A stretch of 64,000 nt of DNA from Acidimicrobiaceae bacterium (lineage in GTDB: Bacteria; Actinomycetota; Acidimicrobiia; Actinomarinales; Actinomarinaceae), in the NCBI GenBank assembly GCA_028344675.1, contig JAOMBT010000004.1:4692-68691 (forward strand), read 5' to 3'. The notes beneath the pieces were generated by a model that worked only from the letters and a program-made list of their open reading frames with translations, ran no database searches and was not told the origin of the DNA. This document shows, piece after piece, positions 31,716-59,375 of the stretch (the first letter of the stretch is position 1; each line of letters opens with the position of its first letter). The position numbers and the translations under genes are program-made.

Positions 31716-32828
31716 ATGAAAAATAGAAATATATTATTGGGTATTGTTATTATTGCTATTTCTGTTGGTGGTGTATTAATCTACAATCTAATTCCACAAT
31801 TTGAAACTACTGAATTTGATCAAGAATCAATTATCCAAATAAGTGAAGGTGCTACGACAACTATTAGTTCATCAGATACTTCACCAAGTACAACTACTAC
31901 AGATGTTTTTGATGAAGAACTAATTGATATTCAACCTTCAAAAATTCAAACTATACTTGCAAATAATTCTACAAATGACATATCTGAATATTTTGAAACC
32001 TATCTATTAGTAGGTTCCGATAAAAGAAGTAAAGATAGTTCACTTTCAAGAGGATTTGTGCCAGGTCAGAGAGCAGATGTTATTATCCTTGCCCTAATCA
32101 GCAAGGATGATGAATCAGTCTCATTAGTCTCACTTCCAAGAGATTTACTCATAAAAAACCCTTGTACAGACGAGATACAAAGAATTAATTCAACTTTTCA
32201 AAAAAATGATTGTGGTAATGCAGCTGAAAATTTGTCTGCAACTATTTTAAATGTTACTGGTTTACTTGTAGATAATTTTGCATTGTTTACTTTCGAAGGT
32301 TTTGAAAAGATTATTGATGCATTAAATGGAGTAGAGATATGTCTACAAAAAGCACAGAGAGAGGGTTACTCATTTGAGCTTAATGCAGGATGTCAGATAG
32401 CTAAAGGTAGTGTTGCTTTGAATTGGGTTGTCTCAAGAAACACTGAAATAATGGTTGGCGAAAAAATACTAGATGAAAATGGAAATGATGCTTCAATTTG
32501 GGAACCAATGGCTGGAATAAGTGATTTGTATAGAGTAAAAAAACAACAAGAAATAGTAATTTCTTTACTAAACAGATTGAATGAGTTTAATTCATACACC
32601 GACTTATATAATCTAATTAAAGCTTTAGAACTAACCTTCACAATTGATGAAAACTTAACAATTCCTAATGCTACTCAATTATTGTGGGGGTATAGAAATT
32701 TTAATTTTGCTGAAGTGACAAAACTTACAGTTCCAACTCAACCTTATAGAACTCAAGATGGCAAGGAAGTTCTAGTATTAACAGAAAATTTCTATAATTT
32801 TATAATTTCTCAAGATCTTCTTGATTAA
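31716..32828 (+). CDS. LytR-CpsA-Psr (LCP) family glycopolymer-to-peptidoglycan phosphotransferase
   Basis: N-terminal TM anchor, a Ser/Thr-rich linker (SSSDTSPSTTTT), then YLLVGSDKRS, RADVIILALI and SLPRDL. ATG 31716 is preferred to TTG 31710. Confidence 0.85.
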   Translation: MKNRNILLGIVIIAISVGGVLIYNLIPQFETTEFDQESIIQISEGATTTISSSDTSPSTTTTDVFDEELIDIQPSKIQTILANNSTNDISEYFETYLLVGSDKRSKDSSLSRGFVPGQRADVIILALISKDDESVSLVSLPRDLLIKNPCTDEIQRINSTFQKNDCGNAAENLSATILNVTGLLVDNFALFTFEGFEKIIDALNGVEICLQKAQREGYSFELNAGCQIAKGSVALNWVVSRNTEIMVGEKILDENGNDASIWEPMAGISDLYRVKKQQEIVISLLNRLNEFNSYTDLYNLIKALELTFTIDENLTIPNATQLLWGYRNFNFAEVTKLTVPTQPYRTQDGKEVLVLTENFYNFIISQDLLD

Positions 32829-35238
32829 TTTTTGAATCTTTTAATCCAAGTAAAAGTGTAAATAATATCATTGCATCAGGAGAGTAAATCAAATCATTTG
32901 TAATATTGTGAATTAAAAAATAAAGTAGGCAAATATTTAAAATTATTAAAGAATCATTTTTTTTATAATTAAATTTTTTAAATACTAGATAAATAAGTGG
33001 TGTAAAAAAAATTAATCCCTTTAATAACCCATATTCAACAAAAAAAGTTAGATACCCATTATGAGCAGTTGTAAGTTGGCTTAAAAAAGCACTACTAACT
33101 ATAGGTGCTTGATCATTATCAAGCTTCCCATTTTTTTGAACTAAAACACCTGACCTTAGACTCATGTCCCCTACTTGATTCACATATTCACCATCTGAAT
33201 TTGTCCAACTTAAAAATAGTCTTCCATCATCAATATCTACTTTCCAAGACTGAACATCATCAGTAAACGCAGAGGTATTTGAAATTAGTGTTTGAGTTTC
33301 CCAAGGAATTTCAGGTAATGAAACTTCCAAAATAATTTCAAAATCTTCATTAAAATTAAATTCGTTATCTATAGCTAGCCAGTATTTATTTGGTCTAAGT
33401 AGTTGAATGCCATTATCATCAAAAATAACATTTCCCTTATATTTTCTTAAAGAATTTACTTCATAAAGAGAATATTCATTATTTAGTCCATTTTTTTCGA
33501 AATTAATTTTTTTAATCTTATCATCATTTATTATTTCAAGAGATTTTACACTTCCATCTAGCCAAGTATTACCAAAAGATTGTCCATCAACAAATCCTCC
33601 TATTTCGATAACACCATCATTTTTATTGAATTCAATAATTTCACCTGTATAGTGTGGAAAACCTACCAAATCCCAACTGACTCCATCTCCAGATGTATAA
33701 AAGCTAATTTTTGACCTAGGTAATAAATAATCATATTTGTCATATGCTATTTTTATAAAACCCTTTATATTTCTAAATTCACACTCATTACAAATCTTGT
33801 AAAGATTTTCTTCTGGTAATACAGTATTTCTTATAAATAAAGATTCAGTAATTACAGCTAATTCGCCAATTGCTAATGGTCTGTCTTTACATGAGTAAAC
33901 CTTATTAACCTCGCATTCAACAAATATATTATTCGAGTACAAATAACTAAAATATGAATTATGCAAACTTTCTTTATCTATATCCTCGAAACTAAATATC
34001 TGAAAATCTGAAGATAAAATTCTTAATTCGTATGCTATACAAGCAAATTCGCCTCTAGTAACTAAATTTTGATCATTATTAGCTCTACAATTATTAAGAA
34101 CAGTTTCGAGTTTTATATTATTACTAATATCAAAAATTTGAAGAAAATTTAATACTGTGTCAGCGTCAACTCTAAAATATTGACATGTGTCTCTGTCATC
34201 AGAACATGGTTTTGTAATGAAATACTGCTGTAAGATTTCAAAACCACCACCAGATGTTCCAATAAAAAAGTCTATATCAGTATCTCTATATTCTTCAGGG
34301 GTTATCCCCAACTCAACTTTATTTAATTTAATATTTAAGTTCTCTTCAAGTATTTCTGGATTAATCGATAATAAATAAGGCTCATAGATTTTATTTATAT
34401 ACTCCCCACCACCAACACCATCGAATACTTCTATATTTGAAATAGCAATATTAGCAAGTAAAGATCGGTCATTTTCTTTTAATATATAACTTGACGGACC
34501 AAAATACAATAAGCTCATAACAATTGCAGCTAACCCAGATACATAAAAAATTTGAATTTTTGTAGAATTAATTTTTAAAAATATGAATACGATTGATACA
34601 AATATAAATGCTAAGTAACTACCTCTTGAAAAAGTTAATAAAAATAAAAATAAATTTATAAAAGCAAAAGAAAAATAATACTTTTTATCAGTAGTTTTAT
34701 AAGTGTAAAAAAACAAAATAGATAACAGTCCAAAAATTGTTCCAGCAACATTGGGGCCAGAACCTTGAAATCCAGAAAGCCTTCCAGATAAAAATATATT
34801 TGTAGTATCAGAATAATTTGTAATCCATCCTATAGAATTTCCTAAAAAAGATTGTTGGGTTAAGAATGCTGCAATGCTAAAAATACTTACAATGATTAAA
34901 GAATCAAAAATTACCGATATTTCACTATCACTTAATTTATTAAGGACTTTTTTGAATAAAAAGCCAAGTGTTACGTAAAGTACAAACCTAAGAGTTGTTG
35001 TGTTGAATCCATCAAAAATAAAAAATAAAATTAAACAAAAAATTGTAAATATCCATGCAAAATCTTCTTTTTTCTTTATCTCGAAATTTTTAAATGATAG
35101 AAATAATAGATAAATAAATAACAAAATTATTGGAATATCTGAAAATTCTAAAATTGCAATTTTTCCAATACTAGGGGGAATTATTAGAGAAAGACTAAGT
35201 AGGCTTCCAATCAATCTTAAGCTTGTATTTTTATACAT
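32800..35238 (-). CDS. 812-aa Wzy_C/O-antigen-ligase-like membrane protein with a roughly 480-aa extracytoplasmic insertion (Cys-rich region plus concanavalin/LamG-like beta-sandwich sequence)
   Basis: Residues 1-246 have about 9 TM segments, including FSRGSYLAFIF. Residues ~247-725 are hydrophilic with 8 Cys, and include ...FEIILEVSLPEIPWETQTLISNTS...WKVDIDDGRLFLSWTNSDGEY, a LamG_3-like pattern. Then come AHNGYLTFFVEYGLLKGL plus 2-3 C-terminal TM segments. Confidence 0.6.
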   Translation of the reverse strand: MYKNTSLRLIGSLLSLSLIIPPSIGKIAILEFSDIPIILLFIYLLFLSFKNFEIKKKEDFAWIFTIFCLILFFIFDGFNTTTLRFVLYVTLGFLFKKVLNKLSDSEISVIFDSLIIVSIFSIAAFLTQQSFLGNSIGWITNYSDTTNIFLSGRLSGFQGSGPNVAGTIFGLLSILFFYTYKTTDKKYYFSFAFINLFLFLLTFSRGSYLAFIFVSIVFIFLKINSTKIQIFYVSGLAAIVMSLLYFGPSSYILKENDRSLLANIAISNIEVFDGVGGGEYINKIYEPYLLSINPEILEENLNIKLNKVELGITPEEYRDTDIDFFIGTSGGGFEILQQYFITKPCSDDRDTCQYFRVDADTVLNFLQIFDISNNIKLETVLNNCRANNDQNLVTRGEFACIAYELRILSSDFQIFSFEDIDKESLHNSYFSYLYSNNIFVECEVNKVYSCKDRPLAIGELAVITESLFIRNTVLPEENLYKICNECEFRNIKGFIKIAYDKYDYLLPRSKISFYTSGDGVSWDLVGFPHYTGEIIEFNKNDGVIEIGGFVDGQSFGNTWLDGSVKSLEIINDDKIKKINFEKNGLNNEYSLYEVNSLRKYKGNVIFDDNGIQLLRPNKYWLAIDNEFNFNEDFEIILEVSLPEIPWETQTLISNTSAFTDDVQSWKVDIDDGRLFLSWTNSDGEYVNQVGDMSLRSGVLVQKNGKLDNDQAPIVSSAFLSQLTTAHNGYLTFFVEYGLLKGLIFFTPLIYLVFKKFNYKKNDSLIILNICLLYFLIHNITNDLIYSPDAMILFTLLLGLKDSKINQEDLEKL

Positions 35239-53290: not shown

Positions 53291-54517
53291 TCATAATTTA
53301 CTTTTGGAGTTTTTATGCCTTAAATAAGTAAATAGTTCGTACATTTTTTGTGTTATTGTTCCAAGTGTTAATGCAAGAGCAATGCCATTATATGAAAAAG
53401 TGTTTGCCAAAACAGCTGTTAAAATTATAAATACTGATAAATTTATTAATCTACCATAGGTATGTTTAATTATTAAATCATTAAGAAATAAATAATGTCT
53501 TGTCCAGAATGTTAAAAAATACGAAATGTAACCAACAAGCAATATCAACATTGGATAAAAAGAGTCAGCAAAATCTTCACCAACAATTAAATTAATTAGT
53601 AGGTTCCCAAAAATAAAGTAGAGGGTAAACAGCGTTATAGAAGCAGGTAGGATTATTCTTTTGACCAATGAGCTAAATTTGAAATTACTATCATTACTTA
53701 TTTTATTAAGCATCCATGGTGAAAAAGCTACAATTAAATAATTTATTGGGTCAACTAGTTTTTTTGCAATTCTGTAAATTCCTGCTGCATAAAAGTTTGC
53801 AAAATATCCTATTACTACAATATCTAAATGAGCTGGAATTAATCCTACAGCTTGATCAGAACGAATTTGATAAAAACTTTTTTTTGATAATTGAAAATAC
53901 TCAACAATTCCCATAGAATCTAAAATTTGTTCATTGTTTTTTGATAGTAGGTAAAGAACTAAAATCCCAACTATTAAAGCATGAATTGAAAGAGCAGTAA
54001 AGAAACTTTCTAAAGAAGATTCATAAATAACAAATGATACCACTAAGGAAAATCTTAAAATATTCGAAAACGCTTCGAGAGAAGAATAGGTTTTCATATC
54101 TCCCTGATGTGTGTAAATGCCCTTAAATACCTCTATTACATTTAAAAATATTCTAGAAAAAATATAAAAAACTAAATAACTAGGTAAGTTATATAAATTT
54201 AATAAATCAAAATTTTTAGATATTAATAATAAGACAATAATCAATACAGATGACAAAAGTCCTAAAAAGAATTCAAAAAGTATGGAAGTTTTTAAAAAAT
54301 TTTTTTTTGTATTTTTAAAATTAATCAAAATTAAATCTGAGTTTCTTGAATTTAATACCCGAAAACAAATTGCAATTAAACCCAGGTAAACTCCAATAGT
54401 TCCATATAGTTCAGGGCCAAAAGCCTTAGCAACTATTCTTATTTGGATAATTGCAAGTACTGCAATGATTCCCTGTGAGAGAATGAGTTCTTTTGTTTCT
54501 AAAAAAAAAGTTTTCAT
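53291..54517 (-). CDS. Polysaccharide flippase-like membrane protein (Wzx/MOP superfamily)
   Basis: About 12 hydrophobic helices. The track start 54568 reads through tRNA-Ala (MACKRSGVQIPSAPHRC is translated tRNA antisense), so I moved the start to ATG 54517 (MKTFFLETKE). Confidence 0.65.
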   Translation of the reverse strand: MKTFFLETKELILSQGIIAVLAIIQIRIVAKAFGPELYGTIGVYLGLIAICFRVLNSRNSDLILINFKNTKKNFLKTSILFEFFLGLLSSVLIIVLLLISKNFDLLNLYNLPSYLVFYIFSRIFLNVIEVFKGIYTHQGDMKTYSSLEAFSNILRFSLVVSFVIYESSLESFFTALSIHALIVGILVLYLLSKNNEQILDSMGIVEYFQLSKKSFYQIRSDQAVGLIPAHLDIVVIGYFANFYAAGIYRIAKKLVDPINYLIVAFSPWMLNKISNDSNFKFSSLVKRIILPASITLFTLYFIFGNLLINLIVGEDFADSFYPMLILLVGYISYFLTFWTRHYLFLNDLIIKHTYGRLINLSVFIILTAVLANTFSYNGIALALTLGTITQKMYELFTYLRHKNSKSKL

Positions 54518-54526
54518 ACACCTATG

Positions 54527-54599
<73 letters not shown>

Positions 54600-55021: not shown

Positions 55022-55420
55022 TTGAAAAGAATAAAAAACTTAAAATCACTTTTAGAAACATTATTCAACAGTCGTCGTTTAAGAACAATCTTGATAGGCT
55101 TAGCCCTTGTTATTATTTTTTTTGGTTACATCTTTTATATAACTGAACCTACAGTAGAAAGTATTGGAGATGGTTTTTACTGGGCATTAGTAACAGTAAC
55201 AACTGTTGGATATGGTGACATTACGCCCACTACACCTTCAGGAAAATTAATAGCAAGTTTCTTAATACTATTGGGACTGGGGTTAATTGCAACTATTACT
55301 GCTATTGTATCTGCTAAGTTTATTCAGAATTATGTAGACCACCATACTAATGATGATGTGTTAGATAAACTCGAGATTCTACAAAAAGATATCGAAGAAT
55401 TAAAAAATAAAATTCAATAA
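55022..55420 (+). CDS. Minimal two-TM potassium channel (KcsA-like) with a C-terminal coiled coil
   Basis: Two TM helices flank a pore helix and the selectivity filter TVGYGD (VTVTTVGYGDITP). TTG start preceded by GAGGAAG. Confidence 0.85.
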   Translation: MKRIKNLKSLLETLFNSRRLRTILIGLALVIIFFGYIFYITEPTVESIGDGFYWALVTVTTVGYGDITPTTPSGKLIASFLILLGLGLIATITAIVSAKFIQNYVDHHTNDDVLDKLEILQKDIEELKNKIQ

Positions 55421-55977
55421 AGATTTTTCTCTCTAATGTACTTTAAAATTTCTAAAGGTAAATCATTATTTTCTAAAATATTTTCTTGTAATTTTTTGCG
55501 CAAATCTGTAGAACTTAAATTCAGTTTTTGTCCTTCAATTAATTGGTAGTTAAATGGGAATTGTTGGTTTAACAGGTTCATGTTATCTTCACTTCTTAAT
55601 GCAACTAAAAAATTAGTAAGATTAGATAAATCTTTATAATTTTTCCAAGTTCGAATTTTCATTGCAGTATCAGAACCAAGAATGAAAAATAAATTTTCTT
55701 TCGGAAGATTTAGCTTAGTTAATGTTTCATAAGTATAAGAAGGGGTATCCTCAGAATTTTCAATTTTACTAATCTCCAATTGTTCAGAATTTTTAATAAG
55801 AAGTTTTGTCATTTCATATCTATGTATAAATGAAGTGGTTTCTTTTTTTTGCCATGGATTTCCTGATGGAATAAATATTACTTTATCTAAATAAAATTGC
55901 TCAATAGATCTCTCCGCAATTTTTAAATGTGCATCATGAGGAGGGTCAAAAGTTCCTCCAAGTATCCCAATTTTCAT
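55414..55977 (-). CDS. nadD: Nicotinate-nucleotide adenylyltransferase
   Basis: GILGGTFDPPHDAHL (the (H/T)xGH-type motif). 187 aa. Confidence 0.9.
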   Translation of the reverse strand: MKIGILGGTFDPPHDAHLKIAERSIEQFYLDKVIFIPSGNPWQKKETTSFIHRYEMTKLLIKNSEQLEISKIENSEDTPSYTYETLTKLNLPKENLFFILGSDTAMKIRTWKNYKDLSNLTNFLVALRSEDNMNLLNQQFPFNYQLIEGQKLNLSSTDLRKKLQENILENNDLPLEILKYIREKNLY

Positions 55978-57326
55978 TACTTAATAACCTTTTTAAAATT
56001 AATTTTTTCTGTAAATTCTTTAAGCTGTACAAAGGTTCTTACCTCACTGTAATACTCAATTATATTTTGAAAATCCATAAATCTACTATCCCCTGTATTC
56101 CAATACTGCTTTCGCTCTGGATTCATCCAATAAATATTATCAAAAGTTTTTGATAGTTTTTCTATAGTATCTTCAGATATAGACCTGTAGTTATTTCTTG
56201 CATCACCAATTACAAGTAAAGAATTACTAGAAGATTTTATAATTTTTTTATCCGTCAAAAGTTCTTCAAAAGAACGTTGATAATCAGAGTGACCGTCAGC
56301 TTTTACATAACTATTCCAATTGCTTAAAATATTCTTAATATTATTAATTTTCATTTTTTGCAAATCTTTTGTGATCTCAGTGATGCCATCAATAAATACG
56401 AAGGCTTTTACTGACCTAAATCTCTGAACTATTCCAAATAGTAGAGTCAATCCAAATAACGAATAGAGAGCCATGGAGCCACTTATATCACATAATAAAA
56501 TCAACCTCGGTTTCTTTTTAACTCTTGGCTTAAAAACTGTACTGTATAATGACCCTCCATTTTGTAAAGACTTTCTAATCGTTTTTCTAAGATTTAATTT
56601 ACCCTTAGACAAAGAATTCGAGTGTTTTATAAATTTATTAGCTAACATCATGCCAAGAATTTTTGTTTCTTTTAGTAGTTTGTTTCTTTCTTCAGTATTT
56701 GTGTATAAAAAATCTGTTTCTTCAAGATTATCTTTTTGGCTTAGCTCATTTGGTGTGTAAGATTCCTTAACTTGATTCCTCATTTCCTGAATTAATTCAA
56801 GTAACTTCATATCTAGGTTGTTAGTGAAATTCTCTTTATTTTGACTATTAACAATCTGGTCAAGTTCAGCTTCAAATGAAATATTAAAAAACGAAATTTC
56901 ATTTTCATAAACTTTTGATTTCTTAATCTGGTTTAACCAATACATATTAGAAACTGGTCTACTGAAATCGATTTCACCAAAATTGATTAGAATATCTTTT
57001 GATATGTTGTGGAAACTAGTATTTACATCCTCTTTATATTTATCTAAATGACTGTTTTCTTTATATTCATCTAAATCAATAAAATCTAAATGTTCTTGCT
57101 GTATAACATAACCAAAATACTGACTTATTAAATCTTTTAATCGATCTTTTTCACTCTTGTTGGTAGGAAGCAGATGATACATAATTAGTAATTCATCATT
57201 AACTGTTTCTAAGTCTTGTATGTTTAAATAATTTATTACGTCACTAAATCTTTCAGATGGAAATTGTAAATTATTTTGTTTACAAATTGATGAAAAATTT
57301 ATTACATCATCAGTTTGTAAATTCAT
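55977..57326 (-). CDS. VWA-domain protein (CoxE-like)
   Basis: The C-terminal third has RLILLCDISGSM (MIDAS D-x-S-x-S) and downstream VIGDARNN. The N-terminal roughly 270 aa are unrecognisable. Confidence 0.75.
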   Translation of the reverse strand: MNLQTDDVINFSSICKQNNLQFPSERFSDVINYLNIQDLETVNDELLIMYHLLPTNKSEKDRLKDLISQYFGYVIQQEHLDFIDLDEYKENSHLDKYKEDVNTSFHNISKDILINFGEIDFSRPVSNMYWLNQIKKSKVYENEISFFNISFEAELDQIVNSQNKENFTNNLDMKLLELIQEMRNQVKESYTPNELSQKDNLEETDFLYTNTEERNKLLKETKILGMMLANKFIKHSNSLSKGKLNLRKTIRKSLQNGGSLYSTVFKPRVKKKPRLILLCDISGSMALYSLFGLTLLFGIVQRFRSVKAFVFIDGITEITKDLQKMKINNIKNILSNWNSYVKADGHSDYQRSFEELLTDKKIIKSSSNSLLVIGDARNNYRSISEDTIEKLSKTFDNIYWMNPERKQYWNTGDSRFMDFQNIIEYYSEVRTFVQLKEFTEKINFKKVIK

Positions 57327-58137
57327 TATCTTGTTTTATTTTTTCTGTGTATATTGATTGATCGTCATTATCTTTAATTAAAATTCCAATATTAGAATCT
57401 AATTTATCAAAATTGTTTTCATGATTATATTTTACCCATTCAACTGTTTCTATTAAAGAAGGTGGTTTATTTAAATTAAGTTTTCTGAGAAACGAACTAA
57501 ATAATGAGTACTTTTTAGCTTTATCTTCAGAAATTGAATCTACATTATTTAGTATAACTTTTGTCTCTATCTCTACTGATGGATAGTCTAAATAAAAATA
57601 AATACAACGCCTTCTTAAAGCTTCAGAGAGTTCCCTTGTCGCATTTGAAGTCAGAATAGTTAAGTTGTTATCTTTACCAATAATAGTTCCGAGTTCAGGA
57701 ATGGTAACTTGGTTTTCAGCTAAAACTTCCAAAAGTAAGGCTTCAAACTCTTCATCAGATCTATCAACTTCATCTACCAAAAAAAGACAGTTTTCATTTT
57801 TAATTGATTGAAGTATCGGTCTTTCAATGAGGTATTCCTCTGTAAATAAATCTCTTTCATTTTTCTCATTTTGTATAGATAAAAGTTGTTTCTTATAATT
57901 CCATTCGTAAATAGCCTTATCTTCATCTATCCCTTCATGACACTGAAGTCTAATCAATTCCTTTTGAAGTAATTTTGATAGAGTTTTTGCTAAATAAGTT
58001 TTTCCAGTTCCAGCAGGACCTTCGATTAATAACGGCTTATTAAGAAATATTGCAGCATTAACAACATCTACAAGATCACTAGATGCAAAATAATTGTGTT
58101 TTTCAAATTCTTTAATATCAACTTTTGGTAATTTCAT
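57310..58137 (-). CDS. MoxR-class AAA+ ATPase (CoxD-like)
   Basis: Walker A GPAGTGKT, Walker B LFLVDEVDR and sensor region TSNATRELSEALRRRC. 275 aa. Confidence 0.8.
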   Translation of the reverse strand: MKLPKVDIKEFEKHNYFASSDLVDVVNAAIFLNKPLLIEGPAGTGKTYLAKTLSKLLQKELIRLQCHEGIDEDKAIYEWNYKKQLLSIQNEKNERDLFTEEYLIERPILQSIKNENCLFLVDEVDRSDEEFEALLLEVLAENQVTIPELGTIIGKDNNLTILTSNATRELSEALRRRCIYFYLDYPSVEIETKVILNNVDSISEDKAKKYSLFSSFLRKLNLNKPPSLIETVEWVKYNHENNFDKLDSNIGILIKDNDDQSIYTEKIKQDNEFTN

Positions 58138-59375
58138 TTTCTAATAGTCCCTTTTCCTTTAACAACATATTTTTCTGAAGTAAGAGCTTCAAGACCCATT
58201 GGGCCTCTCACATGTAATTTTTGAGTACTAATACCAATTTCAGCACCAAATCCAAACATTTCTCCATCTGTAAATCTTGTTGAAGCATTTATAAACAGAA
58301 CGGATGAATCAATTGAGCTCGTAAAAAGTTCTGCATTTTCATCAGACTCGGTAAGTATCGATTCAGTGTGCCCTGAAGAGAATAGATTAACGTGATCTAT
58401 TGCCTCATTTATATTATCTACGACTTTGATTGCTAATTTCAAATCATGAAATTCAGTTTCATAATGCAAATCAGTTGCTACTTCAATATTTTCATAATTA
58501 CCAACTATTTTTTTATCGAGAAATAACTCTACATCTGCATCAAGTAATGCTGTAATAATTTCATTTCCCATTTCTTGGTAAATATCATTATGAATAATTA
58601 GTGTCTCTAATGCATTGCAGACTCCTGGTCTTTGCACTTTTGAATTAAGAACTATGTCTATAATGTCACTTCTTTTTGCATCAGTATGTACATAAAGATG
58701 AACATTTCCATCCCCATCAAGTATGAAGGGTACTTTGGCATTTTCAACTAAAGCATTTATTAGACCTTTTCCACCCCTTGGAACGATAAGATCGATATAG
58801 TCTGTCATTTGCATAAATTTAAGGGTATCTTCACGTTCTTTACTATCTATAAGTTGTACTATATTCTTGTCTAAATTATTTTTTAATAATGCATTTTGGA
58901 GTGTTTGTAATATTGCTTTATTTGAGTCAAGACAATAACTAGAGCCTCTTAGGATAACTGCATTACCAGATTTTAAACATAACCCAGAAACATCACTAGT
59001 GACATTTGGTCTTGCCTCATATATTACTCCTATAACTCCAAATGGATTTCTTACTTTACTAATCAATAAACCATCATCTGATTCCCACTCCTTTGTAACC
59101 TCCCCTACTGGATCGGAAAGTGGAATAATTTTCTGTAACCCATTAGACATTCCTAATATTCGTTCTTCATTAAGAGTTAGCCGATCAATTAATGCAGTAG
59201 AAAGTTTAAGTTCTTTTGAATTTTCTAAATCTAATTTATTAGAAGAAAGTATGTTATCTTTGTTATTTATCAATTCTTGCGACATGTCATAAAGGATTGT
59301 ATTCTTTTCGTCTGTACTCAATCTTGCAATAACCTTAGAAGCTTTTTGAGCATTGATTCCAATTTCATTAAACAT
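58134..59375 (-). CDS. proA: Gamma-glutamyl phosphate reductase
   Basis: GVIGVIYEARPNVT, and catalytic-Cys region PGVCNALETL. Confidence 0.93.
   Translation of the reverse strand: MFNEIGINAQKASKVIARLSTDEKNTILYDMSQELINNKDNILSSNKLDLENSKELKLSTALIDRLTLNEERILGMSNGLQKIIPLSDPVGEVTKEWESDDGLLISKVRNPFGVIGVIYEARPNVTSDVSGLCLKSGNAVILRGSSYCLDSNKAILQTLQNALLKNNLDKNIVQLIDSKEREDTLKFMQMTDYIDLIVPRGGKGLINALVENAKVPFILDGDGNVHLYVHTDAKRSDIIDIVLNSKVQRPGVCNALETLIIHNDIYQEMGNEIITALLDADVELFLDKKIVGNYENIEVATDLHYETEFHDLKLAIKVVDNINEAIDHVNLFSSGHTESILTESDENAELFTSSIDSSVLFINASTRFTDGEMFGFGAEIGISTQKLHVRGPMGLEALTSEKYVVKGKGTIRK

Follow-up and report, generated by a model that had tools for sequence, protein, structure and literature searches.

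A CoxD/CoxE-like MoxR-VWA gene pair kept between proA and nadD in an Actinomarinaceae genome and in other actinobacteria

A 64,000-nucleotide stretch from the genome of an Acidimicrobiaceae bacterium (Actinomycetota, Actinomarinaceae; assembly GCA_028344675.1, contig JAOMBT010000004.1, positions 4,692 to 68,691 of the forward strand), referred to below as the window, carries two adjacent minus-strand genes between proA and nadD. The first encodes a MoxR-type AAA+ ATPase and the second a protein with a von Willebrand factor A (VWA) domain. The pair probably works as a MoxR-VWA remodelling machine of CoxD/CoxE descent that is inherited vertically in an rplU-rpmA-obg-proB-proA ... nadD-rsfS gene block, with a client other than CO dehydrogenase. 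It is ordinary in kind and has an unusually stable housekeeping address.

The ATPase was assigned to Pfam AAA_5 (E 3e-15; 56.9 bits against a cut-off of 22) and was 42% identical over 269 residues (E 3e-72) to the authentic CoxD encoded on plasmid pHCG3 of Oligotropha (Afipia) carboxidovorans. Its counterpart in a Candidatus Actinomarina single-cell genome was 94% identical, and the G+C content is about 28%. An earlier note, made from this DNA alone, had called the pair CoxD/CoxE-like, and the comparison with CoxD, together with a match of the VWA family profile (columns 6-452) to residues 17-391 of authentic CoxE at an hhalign probability of 99.8%, bore this out; by sequence comparison, the pair belongs to the known CoxD/CoxE-like MoxR-VWA family. 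The open reading frames and the motifs quoted in that note (GPAGTGKT, LFLVDEVDR, TSNATRELSEALRRRC and DISGS) were all found in the translations. The MoxR clade is defined by a helix-2 insert (PMC7159879). This insert (YEWNY..QLL..IQ) was present in the window ATPase, as were the Walker A, Walker B, sensor-1 and arginine residues, which places the protein in the clade. All of these residues were at least 97% conserved among 159 relatives, which argues that the ATPase is under selection as an active enzyme. In a search of PDB sequences, the AAA modules of Midasin were the best match (E 2.5e-20); NorQ was matched at E 4.7e-4, and RavA gave no significant match. Pfam found no CbbQ_C domain in the ATPase, and the protein does not belong to the CbbQ/NorQ subfamily.

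The VWA protein passed the Pfam VWA_CoxE model (PF05762) with 105 bits against a cut-off of 26.4, and its metal-ion-dependent adhesion site (MIDAS) was complete. D280, S282, S284 and D375 were invariant in 67 family members; S347, which occupies the position of the MIDAS threonine of CoxE, was nearly so. When the VWA domain was compared with known structures by Foldseek, the human MDN1 MIDAS domain was the best match (E 3.4e-6), above generic VWA domains and NorD (E 2.6e-4), the margin over the generic VWA domains being small. An AlphaFold2 (AF2) model of the full protein had a mean predicted local distance difference test score (pLDDT) of 81.7. Homologues at 57-90% identity were abundant on marine metagenome contigs.

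The N-terminal region of the VWA protein (about 270 residues in the earlier note) had been set aside there as matching nothing recognisable. Plain phmmer matches to residues 1-150 came from close kin only, which explains why nothing was recognised. The region is still without a Pfam match, and a separate AF2 model of residues 1-238 retrieved no PDB fold with Foldseek (best E 2.2). However, hhalign aligned residues 5-443 with distant family members, showing that the region is family-wide. In the alignment with CoxE, per-column confidence was high across the first four helices, whereas the middle helices had no CoxE counterpart and formed a part about 50-70 residues longer than in CoxE. The first helices are thus an ordinary CoxE N-terminus, followed by a longer helical middle section without a CoxE equivalent, and an orphan N-terminal domain was rejected. 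The MIDAS motif and a C-terminal WLNP motif are likewise common to the two proteins. They differ in two loops: CoxE has GGGTRIG and SDGYDTGP where the window protein has DGHSDYG and GDARNNYR. In O. carboxidovorans, as in the window, the ATPase gene is followed by the VWA gene in tight adjacency. Coordinates of the two genes, their conserved elements and their immediate neighbours are collected in Table 1.

Table 1. The MoxR-VWA pair, its conserved elements and its flanking genes in the window. MIDAS, metal-ion-dependent adhesion site.
Feature	Residues	Position	Strand	Basis or remark
MoxR-type AAA+ ATPase, CoxD subfamily, 275 aa		57310-58137	-	Open reading frame; Pfam AAA_5; identity with CoxD; Midasin AAA modules in PDB
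Walker A GPAGTGKT	40-47	57997-58020	-	G40, P41, A42, G43, G45, K46, T47 at least 97% conserved in 159 relatives
Helix-2 insert YEWNYKKQLLSIQ, MoxR-clade hallmark	77-89	57871-57909	-	Y77, E78, W79, N80, Y81, K83, Q84, L85, L86, I88, Q89 at least 97% conserved
Walker B LFLVDEVD	118-125	57763-57786	-	D122, E123 at least 97% conserved
Sensor-1/arginine region TSNATRELSEALRRRC	163-178	57604-57651	-	T163, S164, N165, R168, R176, R177, C178 at least 97% conserved
CoxE-like VWA protein, 449 aa		55977-57326	-	Open reading frame; Pfam VWA_CoxE
All-helical N-terminal region	1-234	56625-57326	-	Ten helices in AF2 models; family-wide by hhalign
VWA_CoxE domain	235-436	56019-56624	-	Pfam PF05762; top Foldseek matches human MDN1 MIDAS domain and NorD
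MIDAS DxSxS motif DISGS (D280-I-S282-G-S284)	280-284	56475-56489	-	D280, S282, S284 invariant in 67 family members
DGHSDY loop	344-349	56280-56297	-	G345, S347, D348, Y349 nearly invariant; aligned to CoxE GGGTRIG
GDARNNYR	374-381	56184-56207	-	D375, last MIDAS aspartate, invariant; G374, R377, N379 nearly invariant
proA		58134-59375	-	NCBIfam glutamate-5-semialdehyde dehydrogenase, 537 bits; upstream neighbour, context only, not part of the machine
nadD		55414-55977	-	NCBIfam nicotinate-nucleotide adenylyltransferase, 164 bits; downstream neighbour, context

Synteny was surveyed in 80 loci fetched phylum-wide with the ATPase and 79 loci fetched with a Frankiales-type VWA protein, and neighbouring genes were assigned by tblastn with a protein panel. 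The pair lay between obg/proBA and nadD in all eight Actinomarina-type loci. The same arrangement was present in Acidimicrobiales, Ilumatobacteraceae, Microthrix, a Nitriliruptoria-like metagenome-assembled genome (MAG), Frankiales and Geodermatophilaceae, at times with genes inserted between the pair and proA or nadD (MurJ, malate synthase, SRPBCC proteins, 3-deoxy-D-arabino-heptulosonate 7-phosphate synthase or a sigma factor). Among loci with full flanks, housekeeping genes flanked the pair in 36 of 54 from the phylum-wide sample and in 47 of 47 from the Frankiales-type sample. Within 1.5 kb upstream, proA was the nearest recognised gene in 54 of the 156 loci with a MoxR match; within 1.5 kb downstream, nadD was the nearest in 58 of the 152 with a VWA match. 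An annotated Tsukamurella locus reads proA, two SRPBCC genes, MoxR ATPase, VWA gene, nadD, rsfS, a histidine phosphatase gene (gpgP), octT, DegV, ComEA and ComEC. The survey that the earlier note had proposed thus confirmed a proA-nadD slot conserved across actinobacterial classes, from Acidimicrobiia to Frankiales, Geodermatophilaceae and Tsukamurella.

The pair also kept its position where proline genes were missing or lay elsewhere. In an Actinomarina MAG (L003:4768-8742), obg was followed directly by the pair and no proB or proA was present at the locus, indicating either a proline auxotroph or relocation of proBA. Several Ilumatobacteraceae had proB, an inverted murJ and then the pair, with no proA; proA lay elsewhere at loci L032, L041, L042, L074, L075 and L077. 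Displacement was seen in Streptosporangiales and relocation in Nonomuraea and Actinoallomurus, and in Nonomuraea the slot was without the pair and the sole family member detected was 720 kb away. A neighbour-joining tree of the ATPase, a distance tree only, broadly followed taxonomy with the displaced copies nested inside, which fits one orthologous lineage with secondary moves. These comparisons suggest that the pair has been inherited vertically in one slot, and that its place beside proA and nadD is a matter of inherited gene order and of co-transcription, not a demonstrated functional tie.

Three further observations were made on the fetched loci. The two SRPBCC genes of Tsukamurella (L250:10151-11109) are paralogous, lie between proA and the ATPase gene and had no counterpart in the other fetched loci; they matched Polyketide_cyc and not COXG, and were rejected as CoxG equivalents. 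Two lake-metagenome MAG contigs titled 'Bifidobacterium breve' (L048 and L080) carry an Acidimicrobiia-type obg-proB-(proA)-MoxR-VWA arrangement and group with Ilumatobacteraceae in the ATPase tree, and the label looks wrong. Four PLSDB entries (NZ_LT559118.1, NZ_LR134460.1, NZ_CP072877.1 and NZ_OY725717.1) are filed as plasmids yet contain rplU-rpmA-obg-proBA-nadD-rsfS blocks, one of them being 11.85 Mb long; they are chromosomes or fragments.

For Mycobacterium tuberculosis, the earlier note had placed two uncharacterised genes between proA and nadD. We take Rv2427c to be proA, Rv2421c nadD, Rv2420c rsfS, Rv2419c gpgP and Rv2418c octT, and this order agrees with the annotated order in Tsukamurella. 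Rv2426c and Rv2425c occupy 2347 bp by intergenic coordinates, the size expected of such a pair. Table S6 of DeJesus et al. 2017 lists spacers of 23 bp between Rv2427c and Rv2426c and of 36 bp ahead of Rv2424c, with none separating Rv2426c from Rv2425c. Rv2426c is described as an AAA ATPase of the CoxD-like family. Spacers, size, family and gene order all fit the note's placement, each of them indirectly, and this indirect evidence suggests that the pair also occupies the M. tuberculosis slot as Rv2426c/Rv2425c.

Transcription in situ was seen in marine metatranscriptome assemblies, which contained up to 30% of the sampled words from the ATPase and VWA genes. Contigs spanned the proA/ATPase junction (57643-58280 and others), the ATPase/VWA junction (57160-57498) and the VWA/nadD junction (55843-56155). 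These contigs fit one transcript, at low depth and in a type of library where DNA carry-over is possible. In the window, the minus-strand order is rne, rplU, rpmA, obg, proB, proA, the ATPase gene, the VWA gene, nadD, rsfS and tRNA-Ala; a small K+ channel gene on the plus strand separates nadD from rsfS. The overlaps claimed in the earlier note were all read in the sequence: 4 nt at the proA/ATPase junction (ATGA, in ...AAATGA...), 17 nt at the ATPase/VWA junction, where the VWA ATG lies 17 nt ahead of the ATPase TGA, and 1 nt shared at the VWA/nadD junction (TAATG). The note had taken this tightness as a sign of translational coupling. However, 28 of the 45 same-strand junctions in the window overlapped, with a median spacing of -1 nt and a coding fraction of about 99%. 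Because tight junctions are the norm in the window, the overlaps of the ATPase-VWA module are genome-wide compaction without special meaning for the module, and special coupling of the pair was rejected. Promoter and terminator scans gave matches no commoner than in shuffled sequence.

How the pair would work can be proposed from better-known MoxR-VWA systems. NorQ/NorD and CbbQ/CbbO each combine a MoxR hexamer with a VWA/MIDAS adaptor to remodel one particular client, for metal insertion into NO reductase and for Rubisco activation, respectively. The interaction of MSMEG_0748 with MSMEG_0751 is a mycobacterial precedent. By analogy with these three systems, and drawing also on a review (PMC7159879), the window ATPase would form a hexamer on which the VWA protein would dock, and the MIDAS site (D280, S282, S284, S347 and D375) would grip an acidic group of the client. 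ATP hydrolysis would then loosen the client, allowing a cofactor or metal to be inserted or an inhibitory ligand to be released. The helical N-terminal region of the VWA protein is likely an adaptor that binds the client or the ATPase. The client would most probably be a protein of the cell itself that many actinobacteria share and whose gene lies elsewhere in the genome. NorD was among the fold matches of the window VWA domain; however, NorQ/NorD and CbbQ/CbbO are distant in sequence, as the weak NorQ match and the missing CbbQ_C domain show, have other N-terminal parts, and act on clients that are absent here. RavA/ViaA of Escherichia coli also consists of a MoxR ATPase and a VWA partner and acts on respiratory complexes, but RavA is of another MoxR subfamily than the window ATPase.

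Several observations weigh against a remodelling machine with a widely shared client. No client was found beside the pair. The predicted template modelling score (pTM) of the full-length VWA model was only 0.54, leaving the domain arrangement uncertain. In Microbacterium, proA is directly followed by nadD and the pair is absent from the slot, and in Collinsella no pair was found near proA, indicating that the client is not universally dependent on the pair. The conserved actinobacterial module suggested in the earlier note therefore stands in that the pair is kept across classes and fails as a universal rule, given these two genera and the relocations in Nonomuraea and Actinoallomurus. Deletion of the rv2426c start codon recurs in viable bedaquiline-selected laboratory mutants, showing that rv2426c function is dispensable in (rich) culture. 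These mutants tell against taking the housekeeping client of the earlier note as more than a proposal.

The client could instead be a flanking enzyme, or a similar one, that uses a nicotinamide cofactor (ProA/ProB or NadD), modelled on the paralogous pairs that follow the nicotinoprotein Mdo, the N,N-dimethyl-4-nitrosoaniline (NDMA)-dependent methanol dehydrogenase; we give this a small probability. The 54 loci with proA closest upstream, the 58 with nadD closest downstream and co-transcription across the junctions speak for it. So do mdo-MoxR-VWA-RDD operons on two mycobacterial plasmids (L247:2612-7254 and L248:2644-7257) and the co-regulation of MSMEG_6242, MSMEG_6241 and MSMEG_6240. Rv2426c is listed as 45.9% identical to MSMEG_6241, an AAA ATPase beside the alcohol dehydrogenase MSMEG_6242. 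The Mdo-linked pairs (MSMEG_6241/6240 and those of the plasmids) share the CoxD/CoxE-like subfamily with the window pair, but they adjoin NDMA-dependent methanol dehydrogenase and an RDD protein. However, the window-type pair persists where proBA or proA has gone from the locus (L003, L074, L075 and L077), other genes often separate it from proA or nadD, and Microbacterium keeps proA-nadD without it. In most bacteria, ProA and NadD are not known to need a chaperone of this kind.

The pairs were also scored against the NCBIfam models MadB (NF047784) and MadC (NF047783). The window ATPase scored 237.5 bits against the MadB cut-off of 475 and the VWA protein 79.2 bits against the MadC cut-off of 600, and membership was rejected on these cut-offs. 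So did all further pairs tested: those of other actinobacteria, the Mdo-linked ones of the plasmids and authentic CoxD/CoxE all scored below the cut-offs. The MadB and MadC matches therefore report subfamily-level similarity only. The plasmid Mdo-linked ATPase is about 400 aa long, with a C-terminal extension of about 95 aa past the match to the MadB model, and its VWA partner aligns over its full length with the MadC model; both are nevertheless below the cut-offs.

A role on the ribosome is likewise improbable. Here the pair would be a bacterial counterpart of Midasin/Rea1, with the large ribosomal subunit or a factor bound there, such as Obg, RsfS or a hibernation factor, as its target; such factors would be taken off or put on as the subunit is assembled or as dormancy ends. 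Slightly less credit still is due to a fuller version, in which a two-protein prokaryotic Midasin/Rea1 counterpart would move Obg, RsfS and Balon-type factors on and off the actinobacterial large subunit and be kept in the rplU-rpmA-obg ... rsfS block for that purpose. The pair does lie between obg and rsfS, which encode 50S factors, in a block opening with rplU-rpmA, and it stays put at loci without proBA (L003) or with proA at another place. For both halves, the top match in PDB was Midasin, with the E values given above for the AAA modules and the MIDAS domain. However, descent alone can account for the synteny of the block. The AAA_5/MoxR clade as a whole is known to resemble Midasin (PMC7159879), and the Foldseek margins were small. 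Midasin/Rea1 is moreover a single chain of some 4800-4900 residues in which six AAA modules are fused and a MIDAS domain is tethered, whereas the window encodes separate 275-aa and 449-aa proteins; the pair is no Midasin, and the likeness is at the single-module level.

The other lead to the ribosome came from displaced pairs. In Actinoallomurus/Actinomadura-type genomes (L013, L165-L178 and L184; e.g., L165:4859-10260), the pair is followed by a Balon/Rv2629-family factor, a haloacid dehalogenase (HAD) hydrolase and a PF04185 phosphoesterase. The Balon-like gene matched Pfam baeRF_family2 at E 7e-31 and NCBIfam NF052289 ('Rv2629 family ribosome hibernation factor') with 244 bits; Balon is a ribosome hibernation factor, and the gene with these matches is a Balon homologue (PMC10901736). 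An earlier scan with a single protein had reached five Actinoallomurus loci, and an alignment-based scan gave 80 Balon-like loci. Adjacency was found in 15 of the 80, all in one lineage, while the remaining 65 (Streptomyces, Lentzea, Planobispora and others) had no pair within 7 kb. The pair was inverted relative to Balon in one Actinoallomurus genome, and a MoxR/VWA neighbour is reported neither in the Balon paper (PMC10901736) nor in the baeRF-1 paper. Since the adjacency is confined to one lineage, the Balon-based lead is weak. If the ribosome were the client, bacterial MoxR-VWA pairs would be linked to eukaryotic Midasin.

It is quite improbable that the pair has the classical CoxD/CoxE role and matures the Mo-Cu or Mo-S centre of an enzyme of the CO-dehydrogenase/xanthine-dehydrogenase family encoded outside the window. 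Functional CoxD and CoxE are needed to sulfurate the Mo centre and to insert its copper. They are the closest characterised relatives of the pair by sequence, and the Pfam family of the VWA protein is VWA_CoxE. However, no molybdenum hydroxylase, coxMSL gene or CoxL-like open reading frame was found among the ten large open reading frames tested in the window. Nine of them encode phosphoenolpyruvate carboxylase, leucyl-tRNA synthetase, a seven-transmembrane HD (7TM-HD) protein, asparagine synthase, LepA, DnaG, a class II aminoacyl-tRNA synthetase, a heparinase II/III-like protein and PhoH. The tenth, of 812 aa (32800-35238, minus strand), had a coding-like composition and no Pfam match at E <= 1e-5. 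Whereas coxMSL-coxD-coxE-coxF-coxG are contiguous in O. carboxidovorans, no homologue of CoxF/XdhC or CoxG was found in about 250 fetched loci, and the window pair stands in a housekeeping context without coxMSL, coxF (XdhC) or coxG nearby. The earlier note's statement that cox genes are missing here thus agreed with both searches. The housekeeping slot is conserved across very different lifestyles, and related pairs are linked to enzymes that do not use molybdenum, for example Mdo. The terms 'carbon monoxide dehydrogenase' and 'coxL' are absent from the full text of the Actinomarinales genome paper, which is weak evidence of absence.

Although CoxD/CoxE-derived MoxR-vWA pairs are the core of actinobacterial conflict systems (PMC7159879), a part in such a conflict or anti-phage system is very improbable for the window pair, which is inherited vertically in a housekeeping block and not in variable islands, has proA and nadD as neighbours with no third component or effector beside it and does not form a VMAP-ternary system, gave no VWA match and only weak P-loop matches for the ATPase in PADLOC, and had no relative in phage genomes, so that a defence-system, phage or plasmid origin found no support in the PADLOC, phage and plasmid searches.

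Downstream of nadD, three features of the window were recorded. The K+ channel gene (55022-55420, plus strand) encodes a 132-aa protein with two transmembrane segments (Ion_trans_2), and its 3' end converges on nadD with a 7-nt overlap; in other Actinomarina loci, other genes occupy this spot between nadD and rsfS. A tRNA-Ala(GGC) gene (54526-54599, minus strand) lies directly past rsfS. The listed start of the next open reading frame (53291-54568, minus strand; MACKRSGVQIPSAPH...) extends into this tRNA gene, and the real start is probably the internal MKTFF.

A vertically inherited MoxR-VWA machine of the CoxD/CoxE lineage is thus the reading that we favour for this pair. The clients of MoxR-VWA systems known so far are few (CO dehydrogenase, NO reductase, Rubisco and respiratory complexes). 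The pair is kept in one of the smallest free-living genomes, in many soil actinobacteria and, by indirect evidence, in M. tuberculosis. Identifying its client would bring to light a further, widely conserved step of maturation or repair in actinobacterial physiology and give Rv2426c/Rv2425c a function.

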